From Octopus sinensis (taxonomy: Eukaryota): a stretch of 64,000 bases of DNA. Numbering within the stretch: position 1 is the first letter of the stretch; the number at the start of each line of letters is the position of its first letter. The position numbers and the translations under genes were made by a program. The DNA lies in NCBI RefSeq assembly GCF_006345805.1, contig NW_021835999.1, positions 62,001 to 126,000 of the forward strand, in the 5' to 3' direction. Positions 10,066 to 64,000 of the stretch are shown piece by piece. A model generated the notes under the pieces. The model worked only from the letters and a program-made list of their open reading frames with translations. It was not told the origin of the DNA and made no database searches.

Positions 10066-10680
10066 ATAATGACGATTCTAGAAAGAAAATTTATACTTTA
10101 TCATTAACACATGTTTTTAAACATATGTTTGACCCTAATTTGCATAAATGATTATTGAGTCAATTATTGAAAAATATCTGATTTCATCTAATTTTTTATT
10201 TCATAATCACGGCAGTCCGATTCAAAAAAAAGTATTGACGCAAGTTGAAGTATTTCAAATTTATGAATAAATATTGATTATCTTGTCAACTTAACAAAAT
10301 TTATCTTATAACTAAGGTCCTTGAATATTGTGATTTTGTATTTTTTATCAAATAAATTAAATTTATCTACGCCTATAAACAAACCACATTAATTTTAATG
10401 TAGAATTCAAAAATTCGTACATTAGGTACTGCCACTGAATCATAATTTTTTACTATATCTTCCAAAATAGAAAAAACAAAATATCGAAGAAACTTAGAGA
10501 AATAACCACATTTTATTACATAAATTGAATTCGGAATGTTTATCGATTACTCATTGATTAAAAAATAAGATACAATATAAAAACTAAGAAATTCTATATT
10601 TTCCAAAAGAAACGTTTTTATTTGAGTTGTTACGGATATAGAAGAACAGAATTAGAACAGGAAATGTCACAAAAAACATC

Positions 10681-11544
10681 ATGGATAAAAAAAAAATGTC
10701 AGTTGATCACGTGGCCGCTTTGGACCTGTGGGATTCATTGTACAACAAAAGACCCAGTGACCCGTGTATCCAAGCTCAATGGGATGCCATTTCTTGTGAA
10801 GCTCTTGACGTACATCTACGCAAAAATTTCGATCAGCACAGACTTGCATGTCTCCGCGCAGGCTGCTGCACAGGGAGTGGGGCCTGGCTGGATGCTCTCC
10901 CTGTCCCTTCCACCGGTAACTTACTAGACAAAGATTGCCTACGAATTGGTTTATCATTGCGTCTTGGATTGGAAATCTGCGAAATACACAAATGTCGTTG
11001 TGGTGCTGTCATTGACCGTTTTGGTCTACATCCCCTTTCCTGTCGTCGCAGTGCAGGGCGCGCACCACGCCATGCAGCACTTAACGACGTTATTCAGAGG
11101 GGGCTCACGGCCGCTGGGATTCCATCAATCCTCGAACCCGTCGGGCTTGCGAGGGGAGACGGAAAAAGACCCGACGGCCTATCGACTTTCCCGTTTGAGT
11201 TCGGCAAGTCTCTGTTATGGGATGCGACGTGTTCAGACACTTTCTCGGAGCTCAACCTTCCTTCTTCAGCTGTCGAGCCTGGCTCAGTCTCTCGCAAAAC
11301 CGAGAAGATGAAGATTGGAAAGTACAAGGAGCTCTCTGAACGGTATCTGTTCACTCCCATCGCCGTCGAGACTTCCGGCGTCATCGGCGAAAAGTCTCTT
11401 TCCTTTCTAAAAAAGCTTGGCCGCATGATCTCCCATAAACGGGGAGACCCACGCGAGTCCAAGTGGCTTTTCGAAAGGATTTCCTTGGCCATAGTACGTG
11501 GAAACTGTGTTTCCATTTACGAGGCCGGAAATTTAGTTAGTTAA
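10681..11544 (+). CDS. Zinc knuckle plus RLE (PD-(D/E)xK) endonuclease C-terminal ORF of CRE-like element
   Basis: CRCG..ID.FGLHPLSC, RH..LND, GKRPDG, WDATC, PIAVETSG motifs; open for 287 aa. Confidence 0.8.
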   Translation: MDKKKMSVDHVAALDLWDSLYNKRPSDPCIQAQWDAISCEALDVHLRKNFDQHRLACLRAGCCTGSGAWLDALPVPSTGNLLDKDCLRIGLSLRLGLEICEIHKCRCGAVIDRFGLHPLSCRRSAGRAPRHAALNDVIQRGLTAAGIPSILEPVGLARGDGKRPDGLSTFPFEFGKSLLWDATCSDTFSELNLPSSAVEPGSVSRKTEKMKIGKYKELSERYLFTPIAVETSGVIGEKSLSFLKKLGRMISHKRGDPRESKWLFERISLAIVRGNCVSIYEAGNLVS

Positions 11545-16224: not shown

Positions 16225-18804
16225 AAGAAAGTCTTTTTTGATATCAAGTCAAAAATACAGTAAAACCTCTCGAATCCGCCGATTTTGGGACCCACCAAAT
16301 TTATAATTGAAACATGAACTTACCTGAATACATAAAATTATTTATATTCAAAAAATCAGAAATTTTATGTTTTTTAGTTAATTTTCTTAACATTTCCCTA
16401 GTTCGCATAATATTTTCATGATCATCTAAATCTGCATTTACATGAGAATAAATTTTAATAATCTTTAGAGCTCTGAAAGCTTCTGAAAGATTAACTCTTT
16501 TGTCATTTGATTCCTCTTCAATAATTGTTTCCTAAGTATAATTATTAAATAAAATCACTAACTGATTGAACTTTTTTGACTGTAATATATCAGCTTGTTC
16601 AGATTTTTCTAAAAATTCCATTAGCTCTTCATTTTCAGTATATCCATAATCAACAAATTCACTATAAAATATTGGATCGTCAATTTGAAATTTCTTAATT
16701 ATTTCTTCGTCATTGTTTTTGTAGTTCTTAGATTCACTCTTGATTTTGATTGTTTCACATTTTATCCATTGTGCATGACGGAAACAATTTTTGATGGTCG
16801 TAGGAGTAACTTTATTCCAAGCGAAGAGTTTTAATGTCGCAGCAGTTTTAAGGGTGATTGGATTAATTGCATTTTGACAATTTTCCCCTGCCTCAACCTT
16901 TTCGATTATATCATTTATTTTCAAATTGGTAAATTCGGCTTTAAAGCATTTTATAATTCTTTGATCCATTGGTTGCAAAACCGAGGAAGTTCTGGGCGGC
17001 AAAAAACGAATTTCAATTAACGTGACAATAATGAGATGGGCATTGATCTATTGCAAGTAAAATTTTTATTTTTTTCTTCACAAGTTCACAATCAAAATAA
17101 CTGAACCAGCCACTTGTTAAAAATTTCACGGTTCATCCATGCCTTATTGGAATGGGTGTAGGTAACATATTTTCCAGTGTTGAAATTTTTAAAACCCCTT
17201 GGACTTTTGAATCCTCGTATCATTACATGTCTTCTTTTATCGAAACAAGAACAATTTGCGCATAATAGTAAAGAAAATCGATCCTTCGACAACTTTATTC
17301 CAGACCTTGATTTAGTGCACACACTTTTAAAAAGAATCGCCTTGTAAAAAACACCAGTTTCATCTGCATTATAAACATTATCCAATCCATATTGTTCAAT
17401 TTTTAAACTGATTGTTTCATTAACTCCAGTAGATTCCATTAAGTCAATCCGTGTTATCATCGCTACATCAATTTCATTAAATTTGAGTTTTAGAATTCTC
17501 GTTATGTTTAATTTTTTGCTATCAGTCTTATTCAAAAGGTCCGATTTTGATTTAATGTCGTTTATAGTTCTCGGTGAAATTTTCTTTTTGAATCGTGAAG
17601 AAAAAATCCTAGAAATTTGAGGTGCAGAAACAAATGGGTTGTCAGAAATATAACGTAGTATAGAAATTTTTTCGTTGATAGAAAGTCTAACACAACAAAG
17701 CATCACAAAAATACAATTTAACGTGTAATAAAAATTTTTCATAATACTTGAGGAGCGGATTCGAGAAAAAAGCGGATTCGAGAATCATTCATAGGATATT
17801 TCAAATTTTTGATTAAAACAAGCGGATTCGAGAAGTGGCGGATTCGAGAGGTTTCACTGTACCTCCAAAAATCGTTCAAATGTTCGTGGAAGAGGAAAAC
17901 GTGGAGAACATTGAGTATCTCGATTTCTATGGGTATTGATAAATCATTAATTTTTAAGTACACATGAAAGTTCATTAAAACGAGAGAAAGCAGTAATAAT
18001 GCCCAACAAACACTTCAATTCATTCCAAAAACAAATAAAAAAAGCAGTGGAGAACACGCCGACTTGCTCGAGGCTGGAGGAAGCAGCCATCAATGAACTT
18101 ATGAACGGAATTTACCAAGATGTCCTGCCAAATGACCATAAAATAGTGGCAGTCTTCCCCGACCACTCGGAACCAAAGGACCCCGACTACAATCAAGTGT
18201 CAGTGGACAACTGTAACCCTTAGACCTCACTTGATGGGATTGGGCGTGAAGTCCGCCCTCAGGAGTGAGGGATTCAAGGTTGGGGATCACTGTGGAGTCA
18301 GTGAGGGACGGGAAAGTGAGGGTCACAATATCTCAAACAGGCAAGGTGGTTACGGTTGGGATGTCGGAGATCAGTTCGGTGACCGTGGACGAGTACAACT
18401 GGAAAAAAGGGGGTTCAGTGTTTTGGTATACTTGCAGATATCCTGGGAACGACTCGGATTGTTGACTGAAACCGAATCTGCTAATTCTGTGTGCAAATTT
18501 TCTCTACAGGATAGTGGGGAAATGATTTTTGGTAGTTTGGTTGTGTGATTCGCAGGACTCAAACAACGACATTTGCAGCCTGTGATTCCCTGCAACTCAG
18601 AGGATATGGTCTATCTCCTCCGGGGGTCCTGCGTCGGGAAGGATGGTTTGTAGTGTCAGTCAAATTGGCACAGTCGTCAAGAAAGATCGGTCAAGGAATA
18701 TGGCCAGTGTCAAACTCACTGCGGGCATGTTCTCTACTCCTGTTCTCCTCCCATATGACGATATTTGCTGCATAATCCCCGAACTCTTTTCCTGCATTAC
18801 TTGA
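16225..18804 (+). pseudogene. GPKOW: GPKOW (G-patch/KOW splicing factor) pseudogene split by the Tigger element, copy 1
   Basis: DPDYNQVSVD, RPHLMGLG, GLKQRHLQ.VIP, GTVVKKDRSRNMASVKL...LPYDDIC resemble GPKOW; the frame KKVFFDIKSKI|PPKIVQM continues across the Tigger TA site; frameshifts and deletions. Confidence 0.6.
16258..17859 (-). mobile_element. Tigger/pogo DNA transposon, degenerate DDE_1 transposase
   Basis: TIR CAGT(A/G)AAACCTCTCGAATCCGCC, TA flanks, subterminal GCGGATTCGAGA repeats, VYNADETG and PPRTSSVLQPMDQ motifs. Confidence 0.9.
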
Positions 18805-21084: not shown

Positions 21085-21545
21085 AACTGGAATGTTCAAG
21101 CACCGATTTGTTTTACTATTTCGCCAACTTTTATGATCTAGAAAACTAATAACACAAAGCAATTTTATTTTGATTATCGTTTCAAATCATATTTTAGAAA
21201 AACCACTGACAATTAAATCATAACTACCAAGAATTTTGAAAATAAAAACACCTTATTGTAAATCTTTAATAAAAAAAGTTGCAGAGATAATCGCAAAAAC
21301 TGGTTGCATTATTATTTTAAATTGTTTGAATTTATTTATAAACGATATCTTACAAAAAATTCTCCAAATATTATGAAGACTATTCCATTAAGCAACGACA
21401 CTATACGAAGAAGAATTGATCAAATTTTTTATAAAATTGAAAAATCCTTAATTTTACTTTTTAGAGAACGCAAGTTTTCAGTCCAACTTGAGGAATCAGT
21501 TTTCGTTGATAACCAGTCAATTTTATGGCATATGTAAGATATTAC
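21085..21545 (+). mobile_element. hAT (Charlie/ZBED5-like) transposase remnant
   Basis: IPLSNDTIRRRID, FSVQLEES motifs; the 21085-21230 segment recurs at ~50910 and ~61131. Confidence 0.65.
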
Positions 21546-21676
21546 TCTTTATAAATACTTTGTCACATGCCTCAGGGATTACTATGCCCCACTCGTTACC
21601 TCCGAATTATTTCTGAGAAATAATTGATTAATGATTTTTCAATTTTTTAGAAAAATTAATAATCAATCACAACGAC

Positions 21677-21923
21677 TTGAATTGAATTGAATTGAAATGT
21701 TTATTTTCTATGTAACAAACTCGTCACTAGATTAAAAGGGGAGAGAAGAGCCAAACGAAACCAAGGAGACGGAAGAAACAAGTTTGTTTGCTGATTGGGG
21801 TCAATTCTAATGGGACACCAGATGTCCCTTCGATAAAAATAACGACCCCTTGCACCACTATTTATTTAAGTGATGCAACAGTTTTTCAATGGATCGTACC
21901 GATTCGTGTTTTTCATTTTTGAG
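21677..21923 (-). mobile_element. LINE 3' end with (TTCAA)n tail
   Basis: Flanked by AATCACAACGAC at 21665-76 and 21924-35; AATAAA then tandem tail on minus strand. Confidence 0.65.
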
Positions 21924-21935
21924 AATCACAACGAC

Positions 21936-23377
21936 GAACGAACGAAGAATTTTATTGTAAGAAAGAAGAGCGAGACAGAAAATTAGTGCGGAAAGTAATT
22001 TTGACGAGACGATTGCTTTGGGCATTCGAGCTCTTCCATGGTTCGTCCGCTTTGTCTGTCTATGAGCAGGGACACCTGCTATTCTCCACGATCGATGAAT
22101 AGGTCAGTTACTTTAGAGCGTTTCCGAAAAGTTCGGATAGAAGCCTCGATGGCCTGCCGTAGCTCTGGAGACTTGCTCTCCGCCCAGCTTGGGACAGGCT
22201 CCCATGGATTTAGCATATAGGCTAGTTTTAGAGCGTATCTCCGTATTTTTTCGCATTTTCGCAGAATTTTCTCATATTGTTTCGAGTAGAACCAAGCTTC
22301 CATACCATACAGTAGGCTGGGCAAAATTGTTGCATGGTATACAAATAGGAAGGTATTTGGATTCAAGTGCATGCTTCTTAGGAGTCGGAGAGCGGCGATG
22401 GCTTTCCCTTTTCTCCGTTTGAAATGCAAATGGTATCTCGAGTTTGCGTCGATTGTGAGCCCCAGGTAACGTATGCTCTCAGGGCGAGCAATTTCCACCA
22501 AAGAGCCGGGTTTGCGATCTTGCGACTTTCTTGGGTTAATTTGGAGATATGCAGATTTGTCCATGGCCAGCGAGAGTCGCTTACCAATGCACCAATTCTT
22601 TATCTCCTCAATGTAGCCGGCAAGTCGTTTCTCCGAGGCATTGGTGTCCATCGAGGTGTCCAGAACGAGAACATCGTCCGCGTAGAGGAGTAGGGATGTC
22701 CTGGGATCGGAGGGTGTGGGGAAACTGCTCATTACCAAATTGAAAAAGATTGGGCTGAGACAGGACCCCTGCGGAACCCCCCTTCGGAGCGAAATATATC
22801 TTGAGAAGAAGCCCGACTCAGAGATAAAAGAGTAGCGATTTGAGAGGAAGCAGCGCATCCAGAGGAAGACTTCCGCTGTTGGCTCACAGAGTTCGATCCT
22901 TTCCAGGAGGTCTCTGTGCCAGACGCTGTCAAAAGCCTTTGAGATGTCCAGACATACAAGAGATAAAGTTTCTTTAAACTCCGTTGCTCTCGAGATGGTG
23001 GACTGTACCGTAATGAAACAGTCACCGCAGCTACGTCCAGAGCGAAAACCCCATTGCTGCGGGAGCAGCACTTTCTTCTCTTCGGCGTGGAAGTCGAGGC
23101 GCTTGGCCATAATTTTCTCCATCAGCCTTGAGATAGTTGGGATTAGGCTTATGGGACGGTAGCTGCTAGCGAGATTCACCGGTTTCGCAGGCTTTTTGAT
23201 CATCCGGACCTCTGAGATTTTCCATTTTTCCGGCACATGGCCCCATTTGAGACTTGCCGTAAACAGATCCGCGAGGAACACATGTAGGTCTTCGGGTGCT
23301 TCCTTAAACAATCGCATCGGTATTTTGTCATGGCCCGGTGCGTTGCCTTTTGACGAACGGATGGCCCAGGTCACCAA
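21936..23377 (-). mobile_element. 5'-truncated Jockey/I-like LINE with open RT domain and (TTCG)n tail
   Basis: ORF 22079-23383: YRPISL, QWGFRSGRS, LDISKAFDSVWH, GVPQGSCLSP, YADD, YLG; TSD at 21924-35 and 23378-89. Confidence 0.9.
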
Positions 23378-23814
23378 AATCACAACGACATAAAATTCAA
23401 CCTATATATTAGGTTAATTAGAGTACAATTTAATGATATACTAAAAGATGCTTTAAAACAAATAAATTAAAATAATATTTTTATACAACAAACCATTTTG
23501 ACTGATAAGCACATTAAAACATATTTTAAAAATGTGAATTGTGTAAAACGCTTTAAAGGCACATAATTTGATAGTTTTATAATTAACTCTAACCAGTTTT
23601 TAGTTTTATTTAAAACATTTTTTGAAATGTAAAAGATAAAGGTTTAAAATCATCTGTAGATCTCTTATAAAAAACTCAAACTTTATCCAGTTTTTTAGTT
23701 TAAAATCATATATAGATCTGAAGTTTAAAACGAAAAATTAAATTTGTCCTTTTTGATTCTTTTCATGTGAACAATCTTTGTATCTCCATTCGAAAATTCT
23801 ACTTTAAATTTTTT

Positions 23815-23960
23815 CAAACCCTAAACCCAACCAATTCCCTAACCTTCACCCTAACCTTCACCCAAACCCTAACCTTCACCCAAACCCTAACCTTCACCCA
23901 AACCCTAAGCTTCACCCTAACCCTAACCTATACCCTAACCTATACCCTAACCATAACCAT
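23815..23960. repeat. Degenerate (CCCTAA)n telomere-like array inside the Ginger-like element
   Basis: ccctaaccttcaccctaacc... hexamer periodicity. Confidence 0.85.
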
Positions 23961-24162
23961 GAGATAAAACAGCATGCTTAATTTATTGTTTTTTAATGAT
24001 AATGGTTAAGCATTGAAAAAATAAAAATCCATAATATTATTAATTTTTAAATTAATAAGTAAATATATTTCAATCATTTAAATATTTTAAATTGAAATTT
24101 TAAAAATTTAGAGCAATGGTAACGAGCGGGGCATGGTAACGAACAGGGCATGTGACATACTT

Positions 24163-24590
24163 TTTATAAAAATATTTCGGTGATGATTTTATTTTGCAAG
24201 ATTTTTTAAGATTGCAGGAAAAATTTAAATTGCTTAATTCCTGCAAAATTCATATAAAAAATATTTTTTATTTAAATCGGATTTTTATGACCACACTTTT
24301 CATGACAACGATTTGAGAATTAAAACATCATTAAGATGATTATCCGTAATTCTTGTTCTATGATTGTTTTTCGTGTTTTTCATTTTAGAAAATAACTGTT
24401 CGCAAACGAAAGTATTTTTAAATAAAGATATCATTTTTTGGAATGGTTTACTAACAGCGAATATTTTCCACACGGTTGAACATATTTCTCATAAAATTCC
24501 ACAATTTTACAAAGATTTGAATACAAAATCGTTTTAAGAGCATGATCAGACTGCAAATCTATAAGTTTCAATTGATAGATTTCATTCGGG
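24163..24590 (-). mobile_element. hAT transposase C-terminal (dimerisation) remnant
   Basis: Paralog 52868-53056 reads FGSTFVFEQLFSKMK...RITDNHL. Confidence 0.65.
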
Positions 24591-25309
24591 AGATATTGTT
24601 TGATGTGATTGAGTATAAGTTTTTCCAGAACTTTGGATAGGACATAGAAGAAAAATATTTGCATATAAGACGCCGAATTGTCTTTTGGTCTCCCTGGTTT
24701 CAGAATAAGACGAATGTATGCCATTTTCCACAATGTGGGTATTAAGTTGTTGTTTATAGAAAAGTTGTAAACAAAGAGCTGATATTGCCACCTGTCCTAG
24801 GTTTTTCACCAGAATATTGAGAATTCCGTCAGGTCTACAAGAGCCAATACTTCTTAAATTTCTGATAGTCACCTCCTCATGTGTGAGGATTATCATGTCC
24901 CGAAATCTTCGAGGTTTCAATGACTTCAAGCATGATCCATCATATTTCCTGTGGGGGATGTTGCTGATCCCAGAACTTTATTAATTTGTAAGTGAAGGGA
25001 GCCGCATTATCCTCACCCGATTTAAATCTCTCCGGGTTTGTGAATCTTCTTAGAGATGCCCATACTTTTGTTAGAGGGACCTCCGGATTTAGTCCTCTGG
25101 TGAACTTTTCAGCCCTCCTGTACCGTTTGTTCTTTTCAGACTGTTCTATGACTTGATTCAGTAGTCTGATCTTACATCTCTTGTAGATGTAAGCACCTGT
25201 CAATGAATTCCGTTCCTCGATTAGAGGTAGAATCCTCGAAGGTAATTTTCTTACTGGTTTTGGATAAATTTTCCTCATTCTTAAGAGTGATTTTCGTCCA
25301 ATCAAAATT
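24590..25309 (-). mobile_element. Degenerate Jockey-like LINE fragment, truncated at the duplication boundary
   Basis: PDGILNILVKNL, WKMAYIRLILKPGRP..SY motifs; continues to an APE domain in copy 2. Confidence 0.7.
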
Positions 25310-26211
25310 TAGGCCTCCTGGAAAGGATCATCAGTATCCTTCCGGGCAAAGGACTGTCAAATGGCTAGAGAATTTCTTACACATGCGAAAGTCTTTTATC
25401 AGATGTGGTAACCGGACCTCGGATACAATCAATCTAAGGAGGGGAGTGCCTCAAGGGTCGGTCCTGAGCCCTCTACTTTCAACTTATACGTTGCCGACAT
25501 CCCGAAACCAGTAAATCCGGAGAGTCTACTAATCATCTATGCGGACGACATATTGGTTACGGATCTGTCGCGATCCAAGGACCTCTCTTGGAAAAGGCTG
25601 AGGGAATATATAGCGAGGGTTGAGTCTTGGGCTACGGAGAAAGCCCTCTCCTTAGCACGAGACAAGTCCACCATCACGTGGGTTTCTAAAACTCGGAAAG
25701 GAAGAGAACCACTTCTGGAGACAATGGGACTAAGAATCTCTGACGACCTACGCTACCTTGGGGTAACGATCGGGGCTGACGGATCGTTCCTTAAGTTCGT
25801 GGAATCTAGAAGAAGGAAATGTTCCGGGATCCTGAGAAGCCTTATACGCTTCCATCTCTCCCCAGACACCTTTCTCTTCATCTATAAGGCGACTGTAGAA
25901 CCAGTCCTTATCTATGGACATGAAGGTTGGTACCCTACAGACGAGAGAAATCGCATAATCACCAAACTGGAGAAAACAAGGCGCTTTGCGATTAAACTGG
26001 CGTATAAGCTACGGCTTGATCAGGATCTCCCCAGAGAGCTAGATGAACAAACTCAAAACATTCGGCAAGTCCTCTGCTCATTGCAAAGGGCATGAGAAGT
26101 GAAAAGGAAAGCAAGGAGGAGGCTTTCGGTGTCTCGATTTTAATAAAACCTTTTCATATAACTCTTCTCTTTCGGTTGCTAAGTCAATAAAATCTGTTCG
26201 TTCGTTCGTTC
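25310..26211 (+). mobile_element. Jockey/I-like LINE 3' fragment with (TTCG)n tail
   Basis: RGVPQGSVLSP, IYADD, YLGVTI; tail abuts GTCGTTGTGATT at 26212-26223. Confidence 0.85.
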
Positions 26212-26223
26212 GTCGTTGTGATT

Positions 26224-26689
26224 AGAGTATTTTGCATTTTGCCATCCAGCCCTACGTTAAATTTGGAGCCTGATACTTTCCTCTACGTTTTCAATACGGT
26301 GATCCTACCGGGACTACTATACGGAAAAGAGGGATGGTACTTCTCTAAAAAGAAGGACACCATCTTAACTAAATTTGAAAAGTCTCGCAGGCTCGCTTTG
26401 AAGCTTGCTTACCACCAAAAAGTTGAAGATCCAATCCCCCTGTGGCTTGAAAGTAAATCCTCCATGGTCGGTGAAACTGTCGAAAAAGCTATAAGTGGTT
26501 ATAAATCCAACTCAATTGTCACTGGGACGTACCTGCAGAGGTAGAAAAGAAAAAAAAAAAAATTTACTTGAGGGGGTCTCTTTTTTTTTTCTGGGAAGAA
26601 GTCGATAGGGTAGTCCTATTGTTTCATTATACAAACTCCCCCCTAACCTTTAACCCTTCTCTGTTTCCAATAAAACTTCCTATTCCTAT
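26224..26689 (+). mobile_element. Related LINE 3' fragment with (CCTATT)n tail
   Basis: PDTFLYVF..ILPGLLYG.EGW...RRLALKLAY; flanked by TCGTTGTGATT at 26213-23 and 26690-700. Confidence 0.8.
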
Positions 26690-26804
26690 TCGTTGTGATT
26701 GATTATTAATTTTTCTAAAAAATTGAAAAATCATTAATCAATTATTTCTCAGAAATAATTCGGAGGTAACGAGTGGGGCATAGTAATCCCTGAGGCATGT
26801 GACA
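26690..26804. mobile_element. Terminus of a second Ginger-like element (inverted relative to 21561)
   Basis: Reverse complement of 21561-21675, ending GGCATGTGACA. Confidence 0.85.
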
Positions 26805-27415
26805 CATTATTATTACGGACGAAGCAATCCTACCGACAACATCGTAAATGAAACTAAAAATCTACTAAGAGCAAATAAAACAGTGGATGGCATTAAAGTA
26901 CTTGACTCTGTCAATTGAAAAGTGCACGCTCACTCGAGTATCAGCAAGAAGTGCAAAAACATACACGATTGACGTTATTCAGAAGATCCAATCATTTTTA
27001 TACCTGGGAGTTCAATTTTCTGAAAATGGAAAGTGTGACGAAGACATACAAATGATCATATCCCTTATTAAATTTCGCTTACCTCCTGAGACGGTGCTAT
27101 TCATTTTCCGAGTTGCCATTCCTCCTGTGCTGATGTATGGGCTGGAAGAGTGGATCTTGTCCCCTTCTAAGGCAAGAATTGTTAAAATACTACAAAAAAC
27201 TAGAAGACTAGCGCTCAAGGTGGCCTTTGATGTAAATCTACCGAGCTTTCAGGAAACTTTTCCTATGATTGGTGACCTTGTTGAAAGTTAGTTCCGAAAG
27301 TATCTAGGGAAGAGAACGAAATAGCGATGGACGACTTTATGAGTAAGGCCTCCTACTGGCCGTTAACTTTATGTCCGATATCTTTTTTGTGAAAATAAAC
27401 CTGTCTTATCTTATT
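26805..27415 (+). mobile_element. Degenerate LINE 3' fragment of the same broad family, (CTTAT)n tail
   Basis: YLGVQF, PPVLMYGLEEW, RRLALKVAF; AATAAA then cttatcttatt. Confidence 0.7.
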
Positions 27416-27566
27416 AAATCTCGCAAAAATTGGTCTTTTCTCATGCTTTTGATAATCTATTTGGGTTTGCTTATTTTGCTAGTGTTTTTGAAATTTTTCC
27501 ACTAGCATCCTCAAAATCTTTTATTTTCAGAATCGTATTAATTATGATAACTGTTAATTTTGAAAA

Positions 27567-28715
27567 TCACAATTCGCCATTTGCCCCACTGCGAATAGCA
27601 AGCGAATTATCTCGCAAGATTGCTATCGATACTCTCTGATACATCCACCTAGTTTCCCGGGAGTCATTTGTCTTCCTTTCAATGGGCTTCCCGATCGACG
27701 AAAGAATTCTTATCTGGCAGAGACGTTTGTTTTCTTTGGCCCGGCGAGACGCAAAACCAGGACACAACACAGACTGAGTAACGGTATCTGGAGCAAAAGT
27801 TTCCGCACAGGTTACATCCCATATGAGACACTTTCCATCGCTAAATAGGAAGACCGTCATTCCGTCCGGACGTTTGCAGTCTCCGCGATCTAGACCAATG
27901 GGCTTCAGAACCGAAGGGAAGCCTGCGGCATTAAGGCCCCGTTTGACGACTTTTTTTAAACTGGAGTGTCTCGGGGTACGTCCAGCGCTTAACCGTGGAG
28001 GACATCAGAGTCTATCAACTGCGCACACTTGCACGAGTGGGGATGCCAAAGAGGGATTCATAGTCGAAGACAGGTGCCGAGTCGAACTGACTCATCATCC
28101 AAGAGTAAACCGGCTGAGGATAGTGGGACGACATTTAACTGAGTGTGATTGTGCGGCTGCGTTCATTGAGGCGAGTTCAATTTGATCGGCGCTTGTTTTC
28201 AGGGATTTCACGATTTCTTTACAAATCTGGATGGAATCCTAACTTTTTTGAAAATGATCCAGCTCGAGAATGACACAGTTCGAAATGTTTAGGAAAGGAA
28301 AAAAGAACAGAATTGACAAAATTTCTCGATTTCGAGAGCGAAGATAGGTAGCAAAACAGAGAAATGTCCATATACAAGCGGATACCAATATTACCGAATA
28401 GTAGAGGTAACATCACATGAGTAATTTTGTCTCCATAGAAGTTAACATTGAGTAATTTTTCGAAGACTTCCAGATAATAGAATCCAGGTCAGACAACAGG
28501 TTGAGTTCCCGGAAACATTGGGATAAACGAAATAAGTAGGTGAGACGCGGAATACAAAGTTAGTTTGTAATGAGGAATAGCCCCACGTGTGCATCGAGGT
28601 CGGAGATTTGTTCCAGGGTCAGAAATAGATCACGTTTCTTATCCGCGATAGCAGTAGATATCTCTCCACCGGAGATTGGCGAACCAAGGACAACCAGATC
28701 TTTCAGGATTGTTCT
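27567..28715 (-). mobile_element. Degenerate CRE-like retroelement
   Basis: KRPDG, IWDVTCAET, WMYQRVSIAILRDN, IPRLTYL motifs with frameshifts. Confidence 0.75.
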
Positions 28716-29149: not shown

Positions 29150-31514
29150 TCCCACCCCGAATTGTTCTTCATGGGCATAACCGAAGCAATCCAGTATGTC
29201 GTCCAAACCCTTCCGACCGGGCTCTGTCCGACTCTATTTCTCATATCGGAGAGACGCAAATGTCGCAACATCCATGTGAGGATCCCCAAGGCAGCACGAG
29301 CGGCTGCGGCCGATGCCTTATCAACTTGCATTCGACTTCTGAGCTTTGCTCCCTGGGTTCTCGGTGCCCTATAAAAGCTGATCGGGATACAACATCTCTA
29401 GCCACTCGAATGAATAAAAACATCCACTCCTTCATGGCTCAGGAATACTGCTCAGACTCGCCCCCACTCCAATCATCAAAGTCACACAAACAGACTCAAA
29501 GCCGCAAACATGAAATTCCAGAATACCGAGGGCGGAGTACGGGCATTCCTCAGGAGCCGACGGGCTCCGCCCTGGATATCTGAAGATACTAATTGTCCGC
29601 ACAGTTCCAGTCTGGTACACGTCTGCTCAAATCAATTACTTGTCTGATAAATCAAATGGTCTAAGGAAATCTGCCGGATACTATCCGTCACATACTCTTC
29701 TCAGCCAATCTCAGCGCTTTTGGCAAAAAATGCGGAGGGATTCGCCTAATTGCGGTCGGCTTTATCTTCCGTCGACTTACGTGCCTGGAGGATGTGAATC
29801 CGCACATTTTCAGATGCGTGCAGAAAATCCCCATGTCCAAAAATATTGATCAAGCTTGACATCAGAAATGCATTCAACAGTATTTGGCATGACCGAGTTT
29901 TGGATTCCTGCTCTGAATATTGTCTTTAATTATTTGACATAACTTTCCAATCATACGGCCAACCATCCTCTCTTATCTTCGAATCCTACACTATCCCGTC
30001 TGCTACGGAAGTTTAACAGGAAGACCTTCTGGGGCCACTCTTTTTCTGTCTTGAAATTTCTAAGGTGACTAAACTTATATCTTCCCCACTAAATTATTGG
30101 TATCTTTCCCTACATAATAAAAATTATTCCGGCTCTGGAGAAAATCAGCCTTAGTTTAAATTTCTCTAAATGTGAAATCTCTAACTTCGAGTGTTCGCAA
30201 TCTACCTTCAAAGACGCTGTTTGCTCATTTCGTGATCTTACCCCCCATTAACGAACTTTCTATCCTCGGAGCCCCGATGGCTGGCGATTCTATTGATGTG
30301 GGCCTACACAAAAAATTCTTTCTCAAGGCAGTTTTCGAAAGTATTAGACAGTTGTACTCACATACAGCATTATTCCTTCTACGAAATTGCTTTACAGTCC
30401 AAAAGCTCACTTATTTGCTACGCTTTTCTCCGTGTTTTGCTTTTCCAGAGAGGCTTTCCGCTATTGACCACCTTATCCGTACTTGTACTAAAAACATATG
30501 CAATTCCCCCTTCGACAATAGGGGTTGGAGACAAGCGACCCTCCCGTTAACCTTTGGCGGTCTCGGCATCCGCTCATGTTCCAACTTATCGTTCCCCTTT
30601 TTCTCTCGACCCTCTCCTTGAGCCACACACTTGTCATGAAAATTCTACGCTCCTTTTCTGAATATTCCTCGGACACAAATGTGACTCATATTAGCAAAGT
30701 CTGGAGGGAAAACAAGGTCTTGACTTTCTGGAAGATCGAATGTCTCAACGGGCTTGGGATCGAATAGGATGCAAGCAAATTTTCAATCTGCTGCTTTAGT
30801 CGTCCAACCAACATTGCTGCGCTTGCCTACTTTCGGCGGCATCCCCGGCTAGTGGAGCTTGGCTTTGCACATTCCCGAACGTCCCATCTGGCACTCTCCT
30901 CGATGATGAATCGGTAAGGATCGGAATCTCCCTGCGCCTTGGGCCAAAGCAGTGTATCCCGCACTTGTTTCGTTGTGGCTGCACTGTTGATTCTTTCGGT
31001 TTGCATCCTTTATCGTGCAGAAAAAGCGCCGGACGTTTTCCGAGGCACTCGACTATGAATAACGGAGGGCCCTCGACTCGGCGGGATTTCCTTCGGTCCT
31101 CAAACCACCGAGTCTTGTCCGCGGTGACGGGAAACGTCCTGACGGGATGATCCTTTTTGTTTTTGAGGGGGAAAAGGCCTCGTATGGGACGCAACCTGAT
31201 TGGATACATCTTCTGCTTCACACCTAACTTTGTGTGCTCTGGAGGCTAAATCTGCTGCTAAGAAAGCTGAAGATTTAAAGCTGACAGAATCTTCCGCCAT
31301 TTCGAATGAGTTTTTCGTGATGCCGATAGCAGTGGAGACGTCGGGTGCTCTTGGCCTAAAAACGGAAAACTTCCTCCGCAAGCTCGGAGCCAAAATCTCC
31401 ATGCACACTCACGATCCTCGGAAGGTGGACTGGCTTTTCCAAAGGTTCTCATTCGCCGTTCTCAGAGGGAACAGTTCGGCGATCCGTCAGGCCGCTGGAC
31501 CTCCCATCGATTAA
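29150..31514 (+). mobile_element. Degenerate long CRE-like retroelement (RT plus RLE)
   Basis: RIPKAAR, VPGGCE, KLDIRNAFNS, QATLPLTFGGLG, GKRPDG, PIAVETSG, FQRFSFAVLRGN. Confidence 0.8.
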
Positions 31515-44594: not shown

Positions 44595-46214
44595 CAGTCC
44601 GACCTCTAAATGGGGCACTAAGTGCCTCAAATCAGAGGTTTCCCCAAAAAAGAGGTTTTTCAAAAAGCTCAATAAATAAAGAAAAAGAACATTATTTTTT
44701 AAAATAATCAGTTAATTTTTCTCCATATTTATATTTATTTTTAATTCCTAACGACACTTTCTTTCTGAATTCATAAAAATCATGAAGAGAATCTGGAATC
44801 AAATCAAAGATGTTTGTCTCTAAGTTTTCCATCAAACTTAAAATTTGTGATATTGATAGTTAGATATTTGGATCATTATCTTCTATTTCATCAAAACATT
44901 CATCAATAACATTATTAAATATTTCTTCAGATGATTCATTTATGCAACTCGAGTCTGATGGAGATTGTCGAAAAACCTTTTGCCAGCAGTTATAAATAAT
45001 ATCCGCAGATACATTATTCCAAGCATCTGAGATTATTGTTACCACTTGCCGCAAATTTAATTTGGATAAAGACTCTATAAACAAATCCTGGTCGTCTTGA
45101 AAACATAAAAAATCAATTAGACAATTCAAATAATTATCCTTGAAATTTTTAATGATTCCAGCATCCAATGGTTGAAGTATTGGTGTCGTACAGCATAGAT
45201 GAAGAGTAACTTTATCTTTACTCCTTTTAAAGCCCCGTGCCGAATCACCAGTTTTCACGAATGATTTACGTGGGGTAAGTTTGATAAAAAGAGAAGTTTC
45301 GTCACAATTAAAAATGTTCTCCTTTCCATATTGTTCAACTTTGATATTTAATTCTGATAAAAAATTCAAAATTATCGCATGATCAGCAGATGCGGATTCG
45401 CCTGACAATGTTCGGAATTTTAATTCATGCCTCTGCTCGAATTTTTCTAACCATCCATTTGAAGCTTTAACCTTGTTTAAGCCCATTCTCAAAGAAACAG
45501 TTAGGGAAATTTTTTTAAAAGAGTTCCAGAAACTGGAACATTCTGATCCCTTAGACGCTGAAAAATATCAAGGACTTTTTCATCAAATCCGTTTTTATTT
45601 TCACTTAATGATGAGGAAAAGAAATCCTTTTTTGATAAATGGAAGAATATTCTTTTTTATACGAAAAATAGTTCCCTTGCTAGTATTGTACATTATGGAT
45701 AATCTCCTCTCAGAATGTTCTTTCTTTAAAAGATGATCAGCAATCTTCAACTTGGTTTCATTCCTCCGGATATGGCAACGCTCAGGAGGCACTTAATGCC
45801 TACCGAAAAAGGACTCTTAGCTTCTCAGACCCTGGGACATCGTCGTCTCAGGCCGATCTTGCGGGAAGGATTGAACCTTTCAGAAGGATCTCCCTCGTTT
45901 GGATCGGCGATCACGGGAATAACTATAATTAACTGGCTTTGCCTGTGTTTGGTCTTTAAATAATAATAATAATAAATAATAATTCAAAGGCATTACACAA
46001 GAAATTTGAAATGAAACGTGTCTTAAAATATTTATTTTTTAAATTGGTATAATTAATTTTATTTAATAAAAAATCAATGCCCCAAATAGAGATGTTAAAA
46101 TTAATTGATTTTTTATAATTTGGTTAAAAAAATTTATAATGCCCCAAAACAGAGTTTTCCCCAAAAAAGAGGTGCCCCACCCCTGGAGGTGCGCCCCAAT
46201 TAGAGGTCGGACTG
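44595..46214 (-). mobile_element. Second Tigger/pogo family element (nested)
   Basis: TIR CAGTCCGACCTCTAA.TGGGGC, TA TSD; ASNGWLEKF, IFNCDETSLF, ILQPLDAGII motifs; absent in copy 1. Confidence 0.9.
45764..45981 (+). mobile_element. 5'-truncated SINE in the start of the nested transposase
   Basis: ATTC TSD at 45760-63 and 45982-85, (TAA)n tail, homology to ~7890-8075; removal restores MPLNETKLKIADH. Confidence 0.75.
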
Positions 46215-51237: not shown

Positions 51238-52334
51238 CGGGGGTGTCAAAGATACGGCCCACGGGCCAGAGCTGGCCCGCGAACGATCTCAAATGGCCCG
51301 CGGTAAAAGTTTAAAAGTGTATTTAAAATCTAAAATTATTATTTAACACCAAATAAAAAAACTGGCGTGTCTTAATTATTTGCCTCACTTTATTTTTTTA
51401 TCTTAATTGGATTCAGAAGGAATAAATCAAGATGTATTTTCTTTTAATGATTTAATTATCTGAAAGTTCATCATTTTGGTGATATTTTTTGATTTTATTC
51501 CTTTAATCTCCTTTTTTACTTATTTATACTTTTTGTGATATTTTTGCGACGCCGGACGTGAGTCACTTTTCAAAAATTTATAGTACTTTTTCAATAATTT
51601 CCCCCTCTTAATTTTCTAAAACTAATGTGCCTCCGTCCTGTTTTATCACTCTGTATGCAGATGTGACAGTGGGAAACACTGAGCATTTTTATTGTTTAAA
51701 AAGTGTAATTTCCACCACATCGAATGTTGATATGAGTCATTATAAAGTGAAAATAACAGGATTACTTCAACAGTTTGAGACACGTTTTGAAATTTTTCGT
51801 GAACATGAAAAAGAATTTACTGTTTTTCGATCACCTCATCTTGCAGCTAACTTACAATTGGAAATTATTGATTTGAAATGTGACTCAGATCTGAAGAATA
51901 AATTTACCATGGTGGGCTTAGACACCTTTTATAAATATCTCTTGCCGAAGTATCCCAACTTAACAGCCTTAGCTGCAAAAATCTTGTCAATGTTTGGAAG
52001 TACATATCTATGTGGACAACTTTTCTCTTTAATGAACATAAACAAAACAAAATTTCGATCAAGACTCACCCACACTCATCTAAGTGAGATTCCAAGATTG
52101 ACGGTAACTCAGGATTTCACTCCAGATATTGACGCTATTATGAAGAAAAAAAGATGTCAAGTTTCTGGAACATATTTTAATTATAAAAATTAATAAATGT
52201 GTTGTTAAATGATTTTAAATTATAAATTAAAAATCATAGTATGAGTTTTGTTAAATCAAAAATAAATAGTCTGGCCCGCGGAGCCTAAAATTTTTTCAAT
52301 CCGGCCCGCGGAAGAAATGAGTTTGACACCCCTG
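51238..52334 (+). mobile_element. Internally deleted SPIN/GTF2IRD2-like hAT transposon
   Basis: TIR C(A/G)GGGGTGTCAAA, GGCCCGCG subterminal repeats, 8-bp TSD CTATACGA, MFGSTYLC.QLFS motif; absent in copy 1. Confidence 0.9.
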
Positions 52335-52692: not shown

Positions 52693-53159
52693 TTGAGGAA
52701 TCAGTTTTCGTTGATAACCAGTCAATTTTATGGCATATGTAAGATATTACTTTTTATAAAAATATTTCGGTGATGATTTTAAGATTTTTTAAGATTGCAG
52801 GAAAAATTTAAATTGCTTAATTCCTGCAAAATTCATAGAAAAAATATTTTTTATTTAAATCGGATTTTTATGACCACACTTTTAATGACAACGATTCGAA
52901 AATTAAAACATCATTAAGATGATTATCCGTAATTCTTGTTCTATGATTGTTTTTCGTGTTTTTCATTTTAGAAAATAACTGTTCGAAAACAAAAGTACTT
53001 CCAAATAAAGATATCATTTTTTGGAATGGTTTACTAACAGCGAATATTTTCCACACGGTTGAACATATTCCTCATAAAATTCCACAATGTTACAAAGATT
53101 TGAATACAAAATTGTTTTAAGAGCATGATCAGACTGCAAATCTATAAGTTTCAATTAAA

Positions 53160-54250
53160 AGATTTCATTCGGGAGATATTTTTTGATGTGATTGAGTATA
53201 AGTTTTTCCAGAACTTTGGATAGGACATAAAAGAAAGATATTTGCCTATAAGACGTCGAATTGTCTTTTGGTCTCCCTGGTTTCAGAATAGGACGAATGT
53301 ATGTCATTTTCCACAATGTGGGTATTAAGTTGTTGTTTATAGAGAAATTGTAAATTTGACAGAGCTGATATTGCCACCTGTCCTAGGTTTTTCACCAGAA
53401 TAGTGAGAATTCCGTCAGGTCTACAAGAGCCAATGCTTCTTAAATTTCTGATAGTCACCTCCTCATAGGTGAGGATTATAATGTCCTGACATCTTCGAGG
53501 TTTCAATGACTTCAAGCATGATCCATCATATTTCCTCTGGGGGATGTTGCTGATCCCAGCGTAGAACTTTATCAATTTGTAAGTGAAGGGAGCCGCATTA
53601 TCCTCACCCGATTTAAATCTCTCCGGGTTTGTGAATCTTCTTAAAGATGGCCATACTTTTGTTAAAGAGACCTCCGCATTTAGTCCTCTGGTAAACTTTT
53701 CAGCCCTCCTGTACCGTTTGTTCTTTTCAGACTGTTCTGACTTGATTCAGTAGTCTGATCTTACATCTCTTGTAAATGTAAGCACCTTTCAATGAATTCC
53801 GTTCCTCGATTAGAGGTAGAATCCTCGAAGGTAATTTTCTTACTGGTTTTGGATAAATTTTCCTCATTCTTAAGAGTGATTTTCGTCCAATCAAAATTGT
53901 TCGGTTGAAATGACAAAATGTTTTTGTGGAATGTACATATTGCAAATCATTATGTTTCCAACTGATGTAGGGATGGTAATTGCAGAAGACTCCAAACTTG
54001 AATTTTTGCTTCCTTTAGAGCTGAGAAAAAGGGAGCCCTCCTGGTAAAGAATTCCCTTCTTAATAAGTGTCATTAGACCCCCTCCACGACCCGAGGGTCT
54101 GTCCAGGCTATCCATGTGGTAGTTAGGGAAATATGGGGCCCTCGAAGATGGATTGAGTTTTGTTTCCTGGAGTAGACATACGTCAATATCATGCTTGATC
54201 AAAAAAGGAGTTTTGTTCTATTGATTTTCCAATAACTCCGTTGATGAGCG
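53160..54250 (-). mobile_element. Degenerate Jockey-like LINE with APE endonuclease
   Basis: DVCLLQETKL, DRPSGRGGGLMTLIK, NMYIP. Confidence 0.8.
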
Positions 54251-54619: not shown

Positions 54620-55766
54620 GACAAATACTGACTAAGTAAAGTCAACAAACTAATAAATTCTCCCAGCGAGACGGAGGGAACAGCTGTTGCCACGCATGAC
54701 AGCCAGCAGGATCCTCTGAATGAGGAAAGTAAATTCCCTAGGGTCCTTGGACCGCGAAGAACAAAGATGTCCCAATTTCTTTAGGGAAGTGAGGGTCCCG
54801 GAGCCAAAGACGCCGGAAGTCTCGACAACGATTGGCCAAAACCAAAAGTCATCCATCAAAGACTGATATTTCCGGCACTTCGAAAGCTCAGCCTTATTAG
54901 CACGAGACCCAGCAAGAGAGGCCGATTCGTTGATGAAAGACTTTGAGAAGGTATCCACACAAGTGGAATCCCAGACCAAAGGTCTCCCAGAATAAAACGA
55001 GAACAACGTAGAGCCGTCCGGCCTTTTCCCGTCACCACGGTCGAGACCCTTAGGCTCAAGGACAGAAGGGTAGCCGGCCTTTTCGAGTGAGTCGAGAATG
55101 ATTCTGTTAATCGCCGAATGGCGTGGAATACGACCCGCGCTTTTCTTGCAGGAGAGGGCATGGAGCCCGTATACGTCCATAGTAGATCCGCACCGGCAGG
55201 GGTGGGGACTACAGATCGGAAGTCCAAGGCGGAGGCAAATGCCAAAACGGAGGGCGTCGGAGTCAAGACAGGTGTCCAAATGGGTCGAAGGAAGGCAGTT
55301 AAGCCAAGAGCCAGAATGCGGTTGGCGGCTGGCACGGTAACAAGCCAGTCTGTGCTGGTTCAGGAGAGCCTCCAACGAGTCCGCATGATGCTTACTAAGA
55401 ATTTTATCCCATTCACGTTGGAGGGACCTATCAGAAGGGAACTCAAGCCCTTTTTCCTTCCAAAGCAAAAGTGCAGAATTAATATCAGAGTCCAAACGAG
55501 ATCCGGCGATTTTTCAAGAATCTTATGGACAAGAAGATACAATCCTGAAGACGATGAAAGGAAAGCGGGAAGAGAAATGTCGAGAGCCGAGCGGAGCCCA
55601 AGCCCACCAAAAGGAACAGGAAGTTTGGCCTGACGCCAACCGACATCATCGAACTTGACGTTAAAAATAATCTCGGCTGAAGAACGCACCAGAGCGTCAA
55701 AAGACTCCAAAGCAGAGGGAACAGAAAAGCAACAGGAACTCCTTAGGACATAATTGATCCTCGGAA
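54620..55766 (-). mobile_element. 5'-truncated CRE-like retroelement
   Basis: QAKLPVPFGGLG, CRCG..HALSC, GKRPDG, WDSTC, VETSG; possible TSD TCTTTAAT. Confidence 0.85.
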
Positions 55767-56175
55767 TCTTTAATTGCGTTTCATTTTGAGTTTCAATTCT
55801 TATAATTAAATATTCCCAAACAGAGAAAATATTTTGATGGAATTGAGGAAGAGCGAATAAAGGCGGAAGAAAAAAAACAAATTAAAATCATTAGAACTGA
55901 TAAATTCCTTTGCATCCAAATAATGATGTATTCGTGCATTATCATCTATGAAAACTGGAGATTTTATGTTTTTCAGTTCACCTCACTTGATCATAAATTT
56001 TATGAAAAATCATTCTATATTTATTCATAGCTGCCAAAACAGAAATAAGACTGCTATCCTAACATGAGGTGAAGTCCCTCTTTTAGCTACCCTAACATGA
56101 GGTGAACAATGTCAGATAGTTTCAAAATGCAATTTTGATTAACCCAAGATGAAATTGAGTTTTTTTGATCTACGT

Positions 56176-61927: not shown

Positions 61928-62450
61928 TTATAACCAAAATGTCCCTCGGTCTAACCTCAGGATGTGTCCAAAAAGTCTCCAGCAAGAGCTAATAATCTCG
62001 CAACTTATTGGCGTACAGTCACACTTATTGTATAGTCTACTCTGTGAGATCCTGGATGGCCAGGAAATTCCAGATATGTTTTTTAGATGATTCATGTAAA
62101 ACGAGTCGAGCCTCCCCAATTCCTCATTTGTTGTTCTCCATGTCCCAGAGTTGTATAAGAGGATTGGTTTGATAAATGTGTTGTATAGCATTATTCTTTG
62201 TTTTTTGTTATTCCCTTTCCGTTATGGCCATAGGTTTTTCAGCCTGTTTAATGCCGCGTTTGGCAACATTTTTCCTCATATGATATCCCCACTGTCTCCT
62301 AATAGAGAGCCGAGTTTATTAGTGTTTCTCTATTTCTCTTCGACTGGGTTATTCATTCATATTATTTCTGTCCATTCTGTTTTTTCCCTGTTCACGTAGA
62401 GAAATTATTACCAAATATATCTGGTGAATTCTTTTGGTTGGGGTCATTCT
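61928..62450 (-). mobile_element. RTE-like LINE RT C-terminal remnant
   Basis: LYNTFIKPILLYNSGTW, WRLFGHILRL. Confidence 0.75.
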
Positions 62451-62499: not shown

Positions 62500-64000
62500 T
62501 TTGAAATCTCATTGTTGATTAAACTTTATTTCGTTGTCTCTACAAAATAAAATCATTACATGTGTGATACATTAGTTTGATCTATTGATTAGCGTCGACT
62601 TTATTTATTTTATTTATTTATTAGGACCAAAAACACTGTCATACTCATAATTAACTATTTCAGGTGATCCCAGTCTCTTTTAAAAACCTTCGCATCTTTT
62701 CTCTGTATTCTACAGCGCATTGTCTAGGACAGGGGTGAAATTCCAATAATTTCAATAATTCAATTTGAAATTCCAATGGCGCATTCTCAATCGAAACAGT
62801 ATGTGGTACTGCAGTTAATTGAAGTTTGAGTTCAATTTTTTTAGTTTCGTTAAATCGCTCTTCAAATTGTTTCAAAATATAATCGAATATAGTATTAAAT
62901 GTATTTGGTGTAAGATCGTCATAATTAATTATTTTGTCATCAATGAGATTTTTGACTTTTTGAAAATGAAATAATTCATTTTTTTATGTGAATCTTCAGT
63001 AGGCGGCATTTATCCATAAAATCGTTAATTTTTTTATACATTCGGCAAATTGTTTGGTCTTCACCTTGCAAAGATATATTCAAATTATTGATATATGTGA
63101 GTACATCAACCGGAAATGCTAAGTCAATTAAGAATTTTTTTTTAATCCAAAAGACACTCTTTTTGCTTTGATGAGTAAAAGTTTGATATTTCTTTTCGTA
63201 AATCAAGCACACGACATGTTGTTTCACCTTGTGAAGCCATCGAACTTGTGCATGGTATAAAATGTCTTCAGCAGATATTTCGAAACTGTCTATGTCTCAA
63301 TGCATTGTTTCGGATATATATAATAATCTGTTTTACTTCATTAAGTGTATCTTCAAATTTTTTCATTTGTGAACAAAGTGCTTGTTGGTGAATAATACAA
63401 TGTACACCAATAACTGATTTATTGTTATACTCTTCTGAGACATATTCAGTTAGGCGTGCAACAAATCCTTGTTTTCTACCCAACATTGCTGGTGCGCCAT
63501 CTGTGCATATTCCTCTTAGACATGTCATGTCCAATTTGAATTCCAAACAACATTGTTTAACTATTTAAAATATATCTTGACCCCGTACATTTCCAGGTAG
63601 TGACTTCATGGATAGAAAATTCTCATGTATTTCAAAATCGAAGGATAGAGTACGAATAAATATGATCAGCTGAGCAGAATCACATATATCATTCGACTCA
63701 TCAATGGCAAGTGAAAATAATGTAGTTTGAGAATTTAATTTTTGTAGGAGTGATAGATTAAGATGCTCGGCAATATGAAACTGTCGGCGCTGAATTGTGT
63801 CACGTGAAAGTGGAATTGCTTCAAAGTTATGCTCCTTGTCGGGATCAATGCATTTAACTGATTCCATGATACATCTTTTCACAAGTTTGCAGTCTAAAAA
63901 AGGTTTTCCAGCAGATCCAAGGATATGAGCAACTCGAAAGGATGCTTCAACTCTTGCATTTGCCACATTTAAAAGTTTTTAAACATTTTTTTTGTTGTCT
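62500..64000 (-). mobile_element. hAT (SPIN/GTF2IRD2-like) transposase pseudogene, continuing past window end
   Basis: PLSRDT, FSLAIDES.D, TDGAPAM.G, HCIIHQ, VRWL, DLAF motifs with frameshifts. Confidence 0.85.

Follow-up and report, generated by a model that had tools for sequence, protein, structure and literature searches.

Why should four different retroelements end at one and the same base of a DNA transposon? The question is raised by a stretch of 64,000 nucleotides from Octopus sinensis (assembly GCF_006345805.1, contig NW_021835999.1, positions 62,001 to 126,000 of the forward strand), called the window throughout, with coordinates counted from its first letter. Two copies of a non-autonomous transposon hold here the inserts A and B (copy 1) and C and D (copy 2), which have the structure of 3' ends of long interspersed nuclear elements (LINEs), and an initial annotation had proposed that these LINEs select the site by its sequence. 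We consider it probable that A to D indeed owe their position to family-level sequence specificity for this one transposon site.

Four insertions at one base of a transposon

The 11-mer AATCACAACGA has five exact matches in the window: 21665, 21924 and 23378 on the plus strand and 26213 and 26690 on the minus strand. In 100 shuffles it occurs 0.04 times on average and never more than once; with one mismatch allowed, 7 matches are observed and 1.8 expected. All five exact matches are LINE junctions, as the initial annotation had stated, but 26212, its position for the fourth, is the start of the 12-mer rather than of the 11-mer. Read in the sense of the LINEs, copy 1 has the junctions transposon interior/target/5' end of B, tail of B/target/5' end of A and tail of A/target/transposon arm, and copy 2 has the junctions tail of D/target/5' end of C and tail of C/target/arm (Table 1). 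The four inserts share one orientation relative to the transposon arm and end in the tandem repeats that had been noted before: (TTCAA)x4 in A, (TTCG)n in B, (GTTC)x4 in D and (TTCCTA)x2 in C.

A target site duplication (TSD) on both sides is present in three of the four inserts (12 bp for A, 12 bp for B, 11 bp for C), and the boundary of the 5' TSD is the same base in all three, with the next base differing from the arm in each. The 11-12 bp duplication that had been claimed for every insertion holds for these three but not for D, which has no 5' TSD: at 25309/25310 a fusion joins it to F, a LINE fragment that is unrelated and lies in the opposite orientation. Under uniform insertion into the 884 bp of the transposon, four independent insertions would share base and strand with a probability of ~2e-10, a figure that rejects random insertion and is no measure of the strength of specificity.

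To which element does the motif belong? AATCACAACGA is part of the host transposon and not of a LINE terminus, as the initial annotation had it, because in copy 1 the arm and the interior of an element with terminal inverted repeats (TIRs) and its own TSD enclose the motif; transposon sequence is present on both sides of the A+B stack. The motif copy upstream of B is a TSD at a truncation point in the middle of an open reading frame (ORF), because the ORF2-profile match of B begins 3 bp from the junction and, in a profile of about 890 positions, only at position 458. Rfam found no match at E<=1 over 21400-27500, and the target was therefore not captured from a known rRNA, snRNA or tRNA family.

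Table 1 Features of the two transposon copies, their inserts and the adjoining LINE E (window coordinates; RT, reverse transcriptase)
Feature	Position	Strand	Evidence and remarks
5-bp TSD TACTT, left, copy 1	21556..21560	.	5-mer repeated at 24158-24162; empty allele in contigs
Left arm of non-autonomous TGT..ACA transposon, copy 1; imperfect TIR 21561-21600	21561..21664	+	31/40 vs right end
Target/TSD copy 1, AATCACAACGAC, transposon positions 105-116	21665..21676	+	motif search, junction reading
Insert A, 247-bp retroposon 3' end, 12-bp TSD	21677..21923	-	AATAAA + (TTCAA)4 tail
Target/TSD copy 2, separates A and B	21924..21935	+	motif search, junction reading
Insert B, 1442-bp 5'-truncated LINE, 12-bp TSD, (TTCG)n tail	21936..23377	-	RVT_1 E 2.6e-34
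Target/TSD copy 3, links truncated 5' end of B with transposon interior	23378..23389	+	motif search, junction reading
Interior and right end of copy 1, AT-rich, non-coding; right TIR 24118-24157	23390..24157	+	
5-bp TSD TACTT, right, copy 1	24158..24162	.	matches left TSD
Insert D, LINE RT and C-terminus, (GTTC)4 tail	25310..26211	+	RVT_1; profile match
Target/TSD copy 4, separates D and C; first G may be tail	26212..26223	-	motif search, junction reading
Insert C, 466 bp, 11-bp TSD	26224..26689	+	26256-26544 ORF2 end; 3' UTR (untranslated region); (TTCCTA)2 tail
Target copy 5 (11 bp) and left arm of transposon copy 2	26690..26804	-	115/115 identical to copy 1
LINE E, B/C/D lineage, degenerate; (TCTTA)2 tail without target after it	26805..27416	+	

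The inserts are different families

A pairwise nucleotide comparison of inserts A to D and the adjoining LINE E gave no match except 19 bp between B and D. Protein identity among B, C and D is 38-49% (27-35 of the 72 columns that they share; 24-28 between E and them), in agreement with the initial description of the ORFs as related yet diverged. Since nucleotide similarity is confined to these 19 bp and the B, C and D proteins have diverged so far, A to D are different families; the same lack of similarity means that at least four separate insertions took place at one base and in one orientation.

Non-long-terminal-repeat RT sequence is present as RVT_1 in B and D, with C and E aligning to their C-termini, and AATAAA precedes the tandem-repeat tail in A, B, C and D. 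The hallmarks of LINEs, namely 5' truncation, AATAAA with a repeat tail and a TSD, are found in A, B and C, with D lacking the 5' TSD. Insert A has no recognisable ORF and no profile match. B has an open frame of 432 amino acids that covers RT and C-terminus and stops at 22079, and D has a frameshift near 25476, with the contigs carrying one extra base behind that position. The 5' part of D and the rest of transposon copy 2 were lost at the fusion with F, where a paralogous sequence in the window runs on into the apurinic/apyrimidinic-like endonuclease (APE) domain of F instead; the only APE match in the window (53909-54214) belongs to this paralogue. None of the LINE ORFs has room for a C-terminal restriction-like nuclease. 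For the C-terminus of B, the ESM Atlas returned unnamed clusters and, below 0.9, a lead to PF09004; Pfam found no PF09004 in B to E. A scan for AATAAA plus tandem tail gave 15 matches, among them A, C, D and E, but it missed the short tail of B, and RT homology is lacking near the other 11; it therefore did not serve as a census.

Assembled contigs were compared over 23965-27450 only, and hence without A, B or the empty joint. Insert C is represented by contigs of 2048 nt (run X2) and 564 nt that have 0 differences from the window copy, while contigs of D differ at 1-2 positions per few hundred bases; if anything, this hints weakly at C as the later insertion. Contig depth is 3846 for C and 4852 for the arm (at 26723), with locus-specific joints of run X1 at 18-43 except one at 304; by these figures C and D, like the transposon, would be multicopy, although depth is not copy number.

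Insert C has two further peculiarities. Its first 32 bp (26224-26255) are not colinear with the C ORF: contigs of three runs match from 26256 and have different letters upstream, and in another contig 26224-26252 is followed by 26483, further along C. The segment may be the true 5' end of C, as found in internally deleted copies. The 2048-nt contig also skips exactly 26533-26567, a segment of 35 nt that on the minus strand reads GT...polypyrimidine...AG. This suggests a spliced antisense transcript over C that runs inward from the transposon end, although the run was guessed to be DNA; a deletion via 3-bp microhomology would explain the gap as well. Introns of the host measure about 30 nt, as in the DOT1 gene near 13790.

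The host transposon

When A and B are removed from 21561-24157, an 884-bp AT-rich and non-coding TGT…ACA DNA transposon is left, with the ends TGTCACATGCC, TGTCA at both ends and an imperfect 40-bp TIR (31 of 40 identical). The TSD of copy 1 is 5 bp, because the empty allele carries TACTT once: a contig loose end before 24157 has the empty genomic site with a single TACTT. This TSD is paired at one locus, and the other flanks seen are unpaired. Two other readings were discarded: a TSD of 4 bp, as the flanks match over 5 bp, and 21561-26804 as one single element, as it would have a left arm at either end, and TACTT and CATTA next to it make no TSD.

The only complete copy is copy 1 (21561-24157); copy 2 is a 115-bp left arm (26690-26804) that has no mismatch to the arm of copy 1, has different flanks and ends inside LINE E, at the motif equivalent to the YADD of the RT. 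The identity of the two arms indicates a young transposon, and the data together suggest a young, multicopy and non-autonomous element. Run X2 contains a contig with yet another transposon end, next to a third flank. Behind 26766, this run also has an end variant with a different flank that lacks the TIR interior between two GAGG words.

The initial annotation had called the element Ginger-like. TGTNR termini and TIRs of the Ginger2/Tdd type are present, and the ~40-bp TIR and the AT-rich flanks fit as well, with the one paired TSD in the range of 4-5 bp (PMC2836005, PMC10045372), but the TSD of animal Ginger2 is 4 bp, with 5 bp found in Dictyostelium TDD-4/5 (Bao 2010, PMC2836005), and the element has no transposase. 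IS481EU likewise has TGT..ACA ends (PMC10045372). By its sequence the transposon can be called Ginger2-like at most.

A paralogous site in the window, at ~52748, has neither the transposon nor 13 adjacent bases. A 13-bp tandem duplication that adjoins the transposon TSD (21543-21560 compared to 52748-52760) is carried by the filled allele as well as by the empty one of the contigs, but not by the paralogue. The transposon interior contains a degenerate telomere-like array of the CCCTAA type (~23815-23958).

Phylogenetic placement of the LINEs

The closest relatives of B, C and D have at most 37% identity (word search of 5.8 billion proteins; HMMER search of 1.84 billion representatives), and the nearest full-length relatives are mostly APE+RT proteins of 880-905 amino acids that carry PF14529/PF03372 and have no RNase H. 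B to E form one lineage (0.999 in FastTree; 99/96 in a small careful tree). In three trees, whose group labels come from motifs and not from curated references, B and D are placed outside the R1-like, arthropod Jockey-like and CR1/L2-like groups, on a long branch of their own with unstable neighbours. After the coverage filter, 223 of 240 hits and 128 of 141 hits were available for the trees; those with 43 rows were made by quick searches, from a random subsample. The earlier label 'Jockey/I-like' fits loosely: B, C and D fall among RTs of the Jockey/I group, but a forced clade of R1, B and D is not rejected (p-AU 0.365, approximately unbiased test).

A CCHC zinc knuckle C-terminal to the RT is typical of the R1 clade, and a long C-terminal region with CCHC/zf-RVT is typical of the Tx1 clade. 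B, C, D and E have no CCHC pattern and no zf-RVT, nor the long Tx1-type C-terminus; both CCHC and zf-RVT are present in the R1-like protein P0135, together with the A.W RT motif. B reads KAFDSVWH and ends 201 amino acids after YADD: it has VWH in place of the R1-type motif AFN.A.W/AFDNAWW, and the motif is not preserved in C, D and E. As indirect evidence on the Tx1 clade, human L1 ORF2p scores ~60 bits, like R2, while matches of the Jockey/I/CR1 group score 140-200 bits (different databases). An L1/Tx1-type motif pattern fits 2 of 435 motif matches among 381 hit proteins, and both of these look CR1-like. Features that fit Jockey in the strict sense are the absence of RNase H, the short C-terminus and the VWH motif, but B and D are placed outside the arthropod Jockey-like group, and the best identity is 37%. 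B to E are best described as a long-branch lineage of the Jockey/I group without firm placement, whose architecture appears to differ from those of R1 and Tx1.

Specific targeting or a preferred substrate?

The explanation that we favour is that a Jockey/I-group LINE lineage with a short ORF2 evolved specificity for the site 105-116 bp inside the transposon. Insertion would occur by target-primed reverse transcription: an N-terminal APE would nick the strand ...AATCACAACGAC^ATAAAA (to be read as ...CAACGAC^ATAAAA) at the C^A step, one nucleotide earlier for C, the freed 3'-OH would prime on the tail of tandem repeats, and the other strand would then be nicked at GTGATT^, 11-12 bp away. The endonuclease would have to be N-terminal, because the ORFs end soon after the RT and the relatives carry an APE. 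The duplication would re-create the core target, so that another family could insert again and a tandem stack would arise. TCGTT, which the tails of B and D have in common with the target, may help priming, and R1-clade LINEs show annealing between tail and target; however, the site would be chosen mainly by the protein, because the tail of A has no homology to the target. The transposon would provide a harmless and multiplying landing site, and it may carry truncated inserts along when it moves: copy 1 has kept both TIRs and a clean TSD.

Several observations weigh against this explanation. The four insertions in two transposon copies are the whole sample. Four LINE ends are indeed there, but of the two transposon copies with two LINE ends each that had been described, copy 2 consists of its 115-bp arm, and A is a LINE end by architecture alone. 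The 3' end of E, one of the five ends examined, is off target. No endonuclease domain of A to D is found in the window, where their 5' parts are absent. The sequences suggest a single origin of targeting in B+C+D, and the split of B+C+D from E has a support of 88/80 in the small careful tree, below the support threshold, while the FastTree of 356 sequences pairs D with E. The four sequencing runs behind the contigs are one sample, which may be the source of the window itself, and give no independent support. Within the range compared, no LINE-free transposon copy was seen across the target, and among the loose ends (14 of 160) and pieces (21 of 643) that were listed, none lies at the 3' junction of C or D. 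A direct joint of the D tail to the arm, to be expected if D were often the sole insert at the site, is not among the 9 contig joints, a weak point as contigs break at branch points. Neither did other data reveal a further transposon copy: the target motif was present in none of the 120 loci found by a metagenome scan with the TIR pattern, and a 22-mer of arm and target had no match in viral and prokaryote genome contigs. The 120 loci were taken as chance matches: blastn gave only a 44-bp match to the TIR pattern, in 4 of them.

How well do other explanations account for the arrangement? The main rival is a hot spot, i.e. the site could be a preferred substrate of fairly promiscuous LINEs that have most of their family copies elsewhere, which we regard as rather unlikely. 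A pyrimidine-purine step before an A-tract, tail annealing and an AT-rich palindrome that may extrude are features such a hot spot could have: TCGTT is shared by the B and D tails and the target, and the imperfect palindrome at ~21623-21667 adjoins the target and the second nick (z of the DNA fold about -2.2 to -2.4; at about -2.2, 6 of 200 shuffles are as good). The off-target position of the sibling E and the contig depths, which suggest that C and D are abundant, also point in this direction, as do the weak preferences of 13-23% of SINEU-1/-2 (PMC4494074). Yet both nick positions are kept within 1 nt across families, A arrived without any tail homology, and all four ends A to D lie at the site, which would be unlikely if only a small share of the copies were there.

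Alternatively, as has been suggested for Tx1-Mar and SINEU, one autonomous site-specific LINE might mobilise other RNAs in trans, and the 'families' would be its passengers. The missing ORF of A, the resemblance of C, with its non-colinear 32-bp 5' segment, to an internally deleted non-autonomous form and the AATAAA plus short tandem tail common to A to D could be explained in this way, but the 432-amino-acid open frame of B, the 2048-nt and 564-nt contigs of C with 0 differences and the lack of common 3' UTR sequence beyond the 19 bp of B and D speak against it, and we consider this very unlikely. Extremely unlikely is an origin of the motif from the LINEs (as terminal repeat or by 3' transduction) or of the stacks by misassembly or recombination. 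The region is rearranged, with the F-D fusion removing most of copy 2 and a ~22-kb duplicate in the window, and none of the contigs listed spans all of 23965-27450; however, the motif is also present where B is cut in the middle of its ORF, the transposon sequences that enclose it, arm and interior, belong to an element that has TIRs and its own TSD, and it is the end point of four unrelated 3' UTRs. Stacks could also be built by recombination between TSDs, yet each family must first insert at the site.

Beyond sequence specificity as such, it is a tentative proposal, possible rather than probable, that these LINEs represent a third independent origin of strict APE-LINE specificity, outside R1 and Tx1. 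In this view the specificity would have been acquired a single time, when E had already branched off, would have persisted through the divergence of B, C and D and would track a transposon that is still active. If true, base-precise targeting in the Jockey/I group would mean that APE specificity had arisen independently once more, and the targeted LINEs and their off-target sister, together in one genome, would lend themselves to comparing endonucleases and to working out how an APE becomes specific for a non-repetitive site of 12 bp. The short ORF2 would be of interest for RNA-based targeted insertion. A puzzle would be how protein families that are so diverged keep tracking a site in a non-coding transposon with fast turnover.

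Other features of the window

The region 3375-25309 has a segmental duplicate or second haplotype of ~22 kb at 32402-53898 (94-98% identical), which carries UTP12/WDR3 and DOT1-like genes; transposon insertions differ between its two copies. ORF fragments with KRPDG...WD.TC motifs, which we take to be from the restriction-like endonuclease of HERO/NeSL-type LINEs, are located at 10642-11544 (+), 27567-28004 (-), 30160-31245 (+) and 54650-55881 (-); the two that were scanned (10642 and 54653) have no Pfam match, and the 3' flanks of the fragments have no obvious target in common. The window also has inverted arrays of a 95-bp tandem repeat (1-663 and 2123-2636) with flanking duplications (852-1680/2566-3388), and decayed transposase fragments of the pogo/Tc5 type (DDE_1) and of hAT at 17092-17784, 44860-45567, 51612-52193 and 63565-63978, the last without Pfam match. 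The fragment 61991-62260 is presumably RTE-like and has no match to the B-E profile.

Relation to known target-specific LINEs

Within the literature searched, which excludes most subscription papers, Repbase reports and supplements, no Jockey/I-group LINE that targets a DNA transposon was found. The Chironomus element NLRCth1 is said to be a site-specific Jockey element and would be a possible precedent; the passages that we found did not support this. The available excerpts of PMC5035012, PMC2861651, PMC8869645, PMC13708176, PMC3072357 and bioRxiv 10.1101/080721 contain no such case. Most families with target specificity are early-branching or belong to Tx1 or R1 (PMC4640811), and sequence-specific APEs are documented for Tx1L and R1Bm (PMC1950540). 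R1-clade LINEs (R1Bm, TRAS, SART) resemble the octopus LINEs in their fixed TSD, in having several families per target and in APE-type specificity, which is predicted here; their targets, however, are ribosomal DNA, telomeres or microsatellites and not a DNA transposon (PMC1950540, PMC4640811).

The initial annotation had named Tx1L in Tx1D as the precedent, and Tx1 in Tx1D is indeed cited as DNA-transposon targeting (PMC4494074, PMC6719617). Like Xenopus Tx1L, the octopus elements would be APE LINEs at one site of a non-autonomous DNA transposon (PMC1950540, PMC4494074, PMC6719617); Tx1D belongs to the piggyBac family, though, Tx1L belongs to the Tx1 clade, and endonuclease specificity there was demonstrated in vitro, while here we infer it. 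The precedent is also wider and includes the crocodilian Tx1-Mar, SINEU and Tx1-9_AMi: several Tx1-Mar families and SINEU target Mariner-N4_AMi near position 240, in the direction opposite to the host, and their tandem insertions sandwich a TSD, while Tx1-9_AMi inserts about 300 bp into Harbinger elements (Kojima 2015, PMC4494074).

The octopus locus resembles this crocodilian system in having several retroelement families at one DNA-transposon site a few hundred bp or less from the end, in opposite orientation and with tandems that sandwich a TSD (PMC4494074). LINEs that hide in DNA transposons, with several families and tandem stacks, are therefore already known (PMC4494074), and of the multi-family hyperparasite system that had been proposed for this locus, the four families at one site stand, but the idea was already published for Tx1 (PMC4494074). 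The crocodilian elements belong to the Tx1 clade and reside in ancient Mariner and Harbinger copies with 86-89% identity to the consensus (PMC4494074). The octopus elements differ in their Jockey/I-group RTs, tandem-repeat tails and lack of a C-terminal CCHC, and in a young TGT..ACA host with a 5-bp TSD; it is their lineage, the Jockey/I group, that may be the new part.

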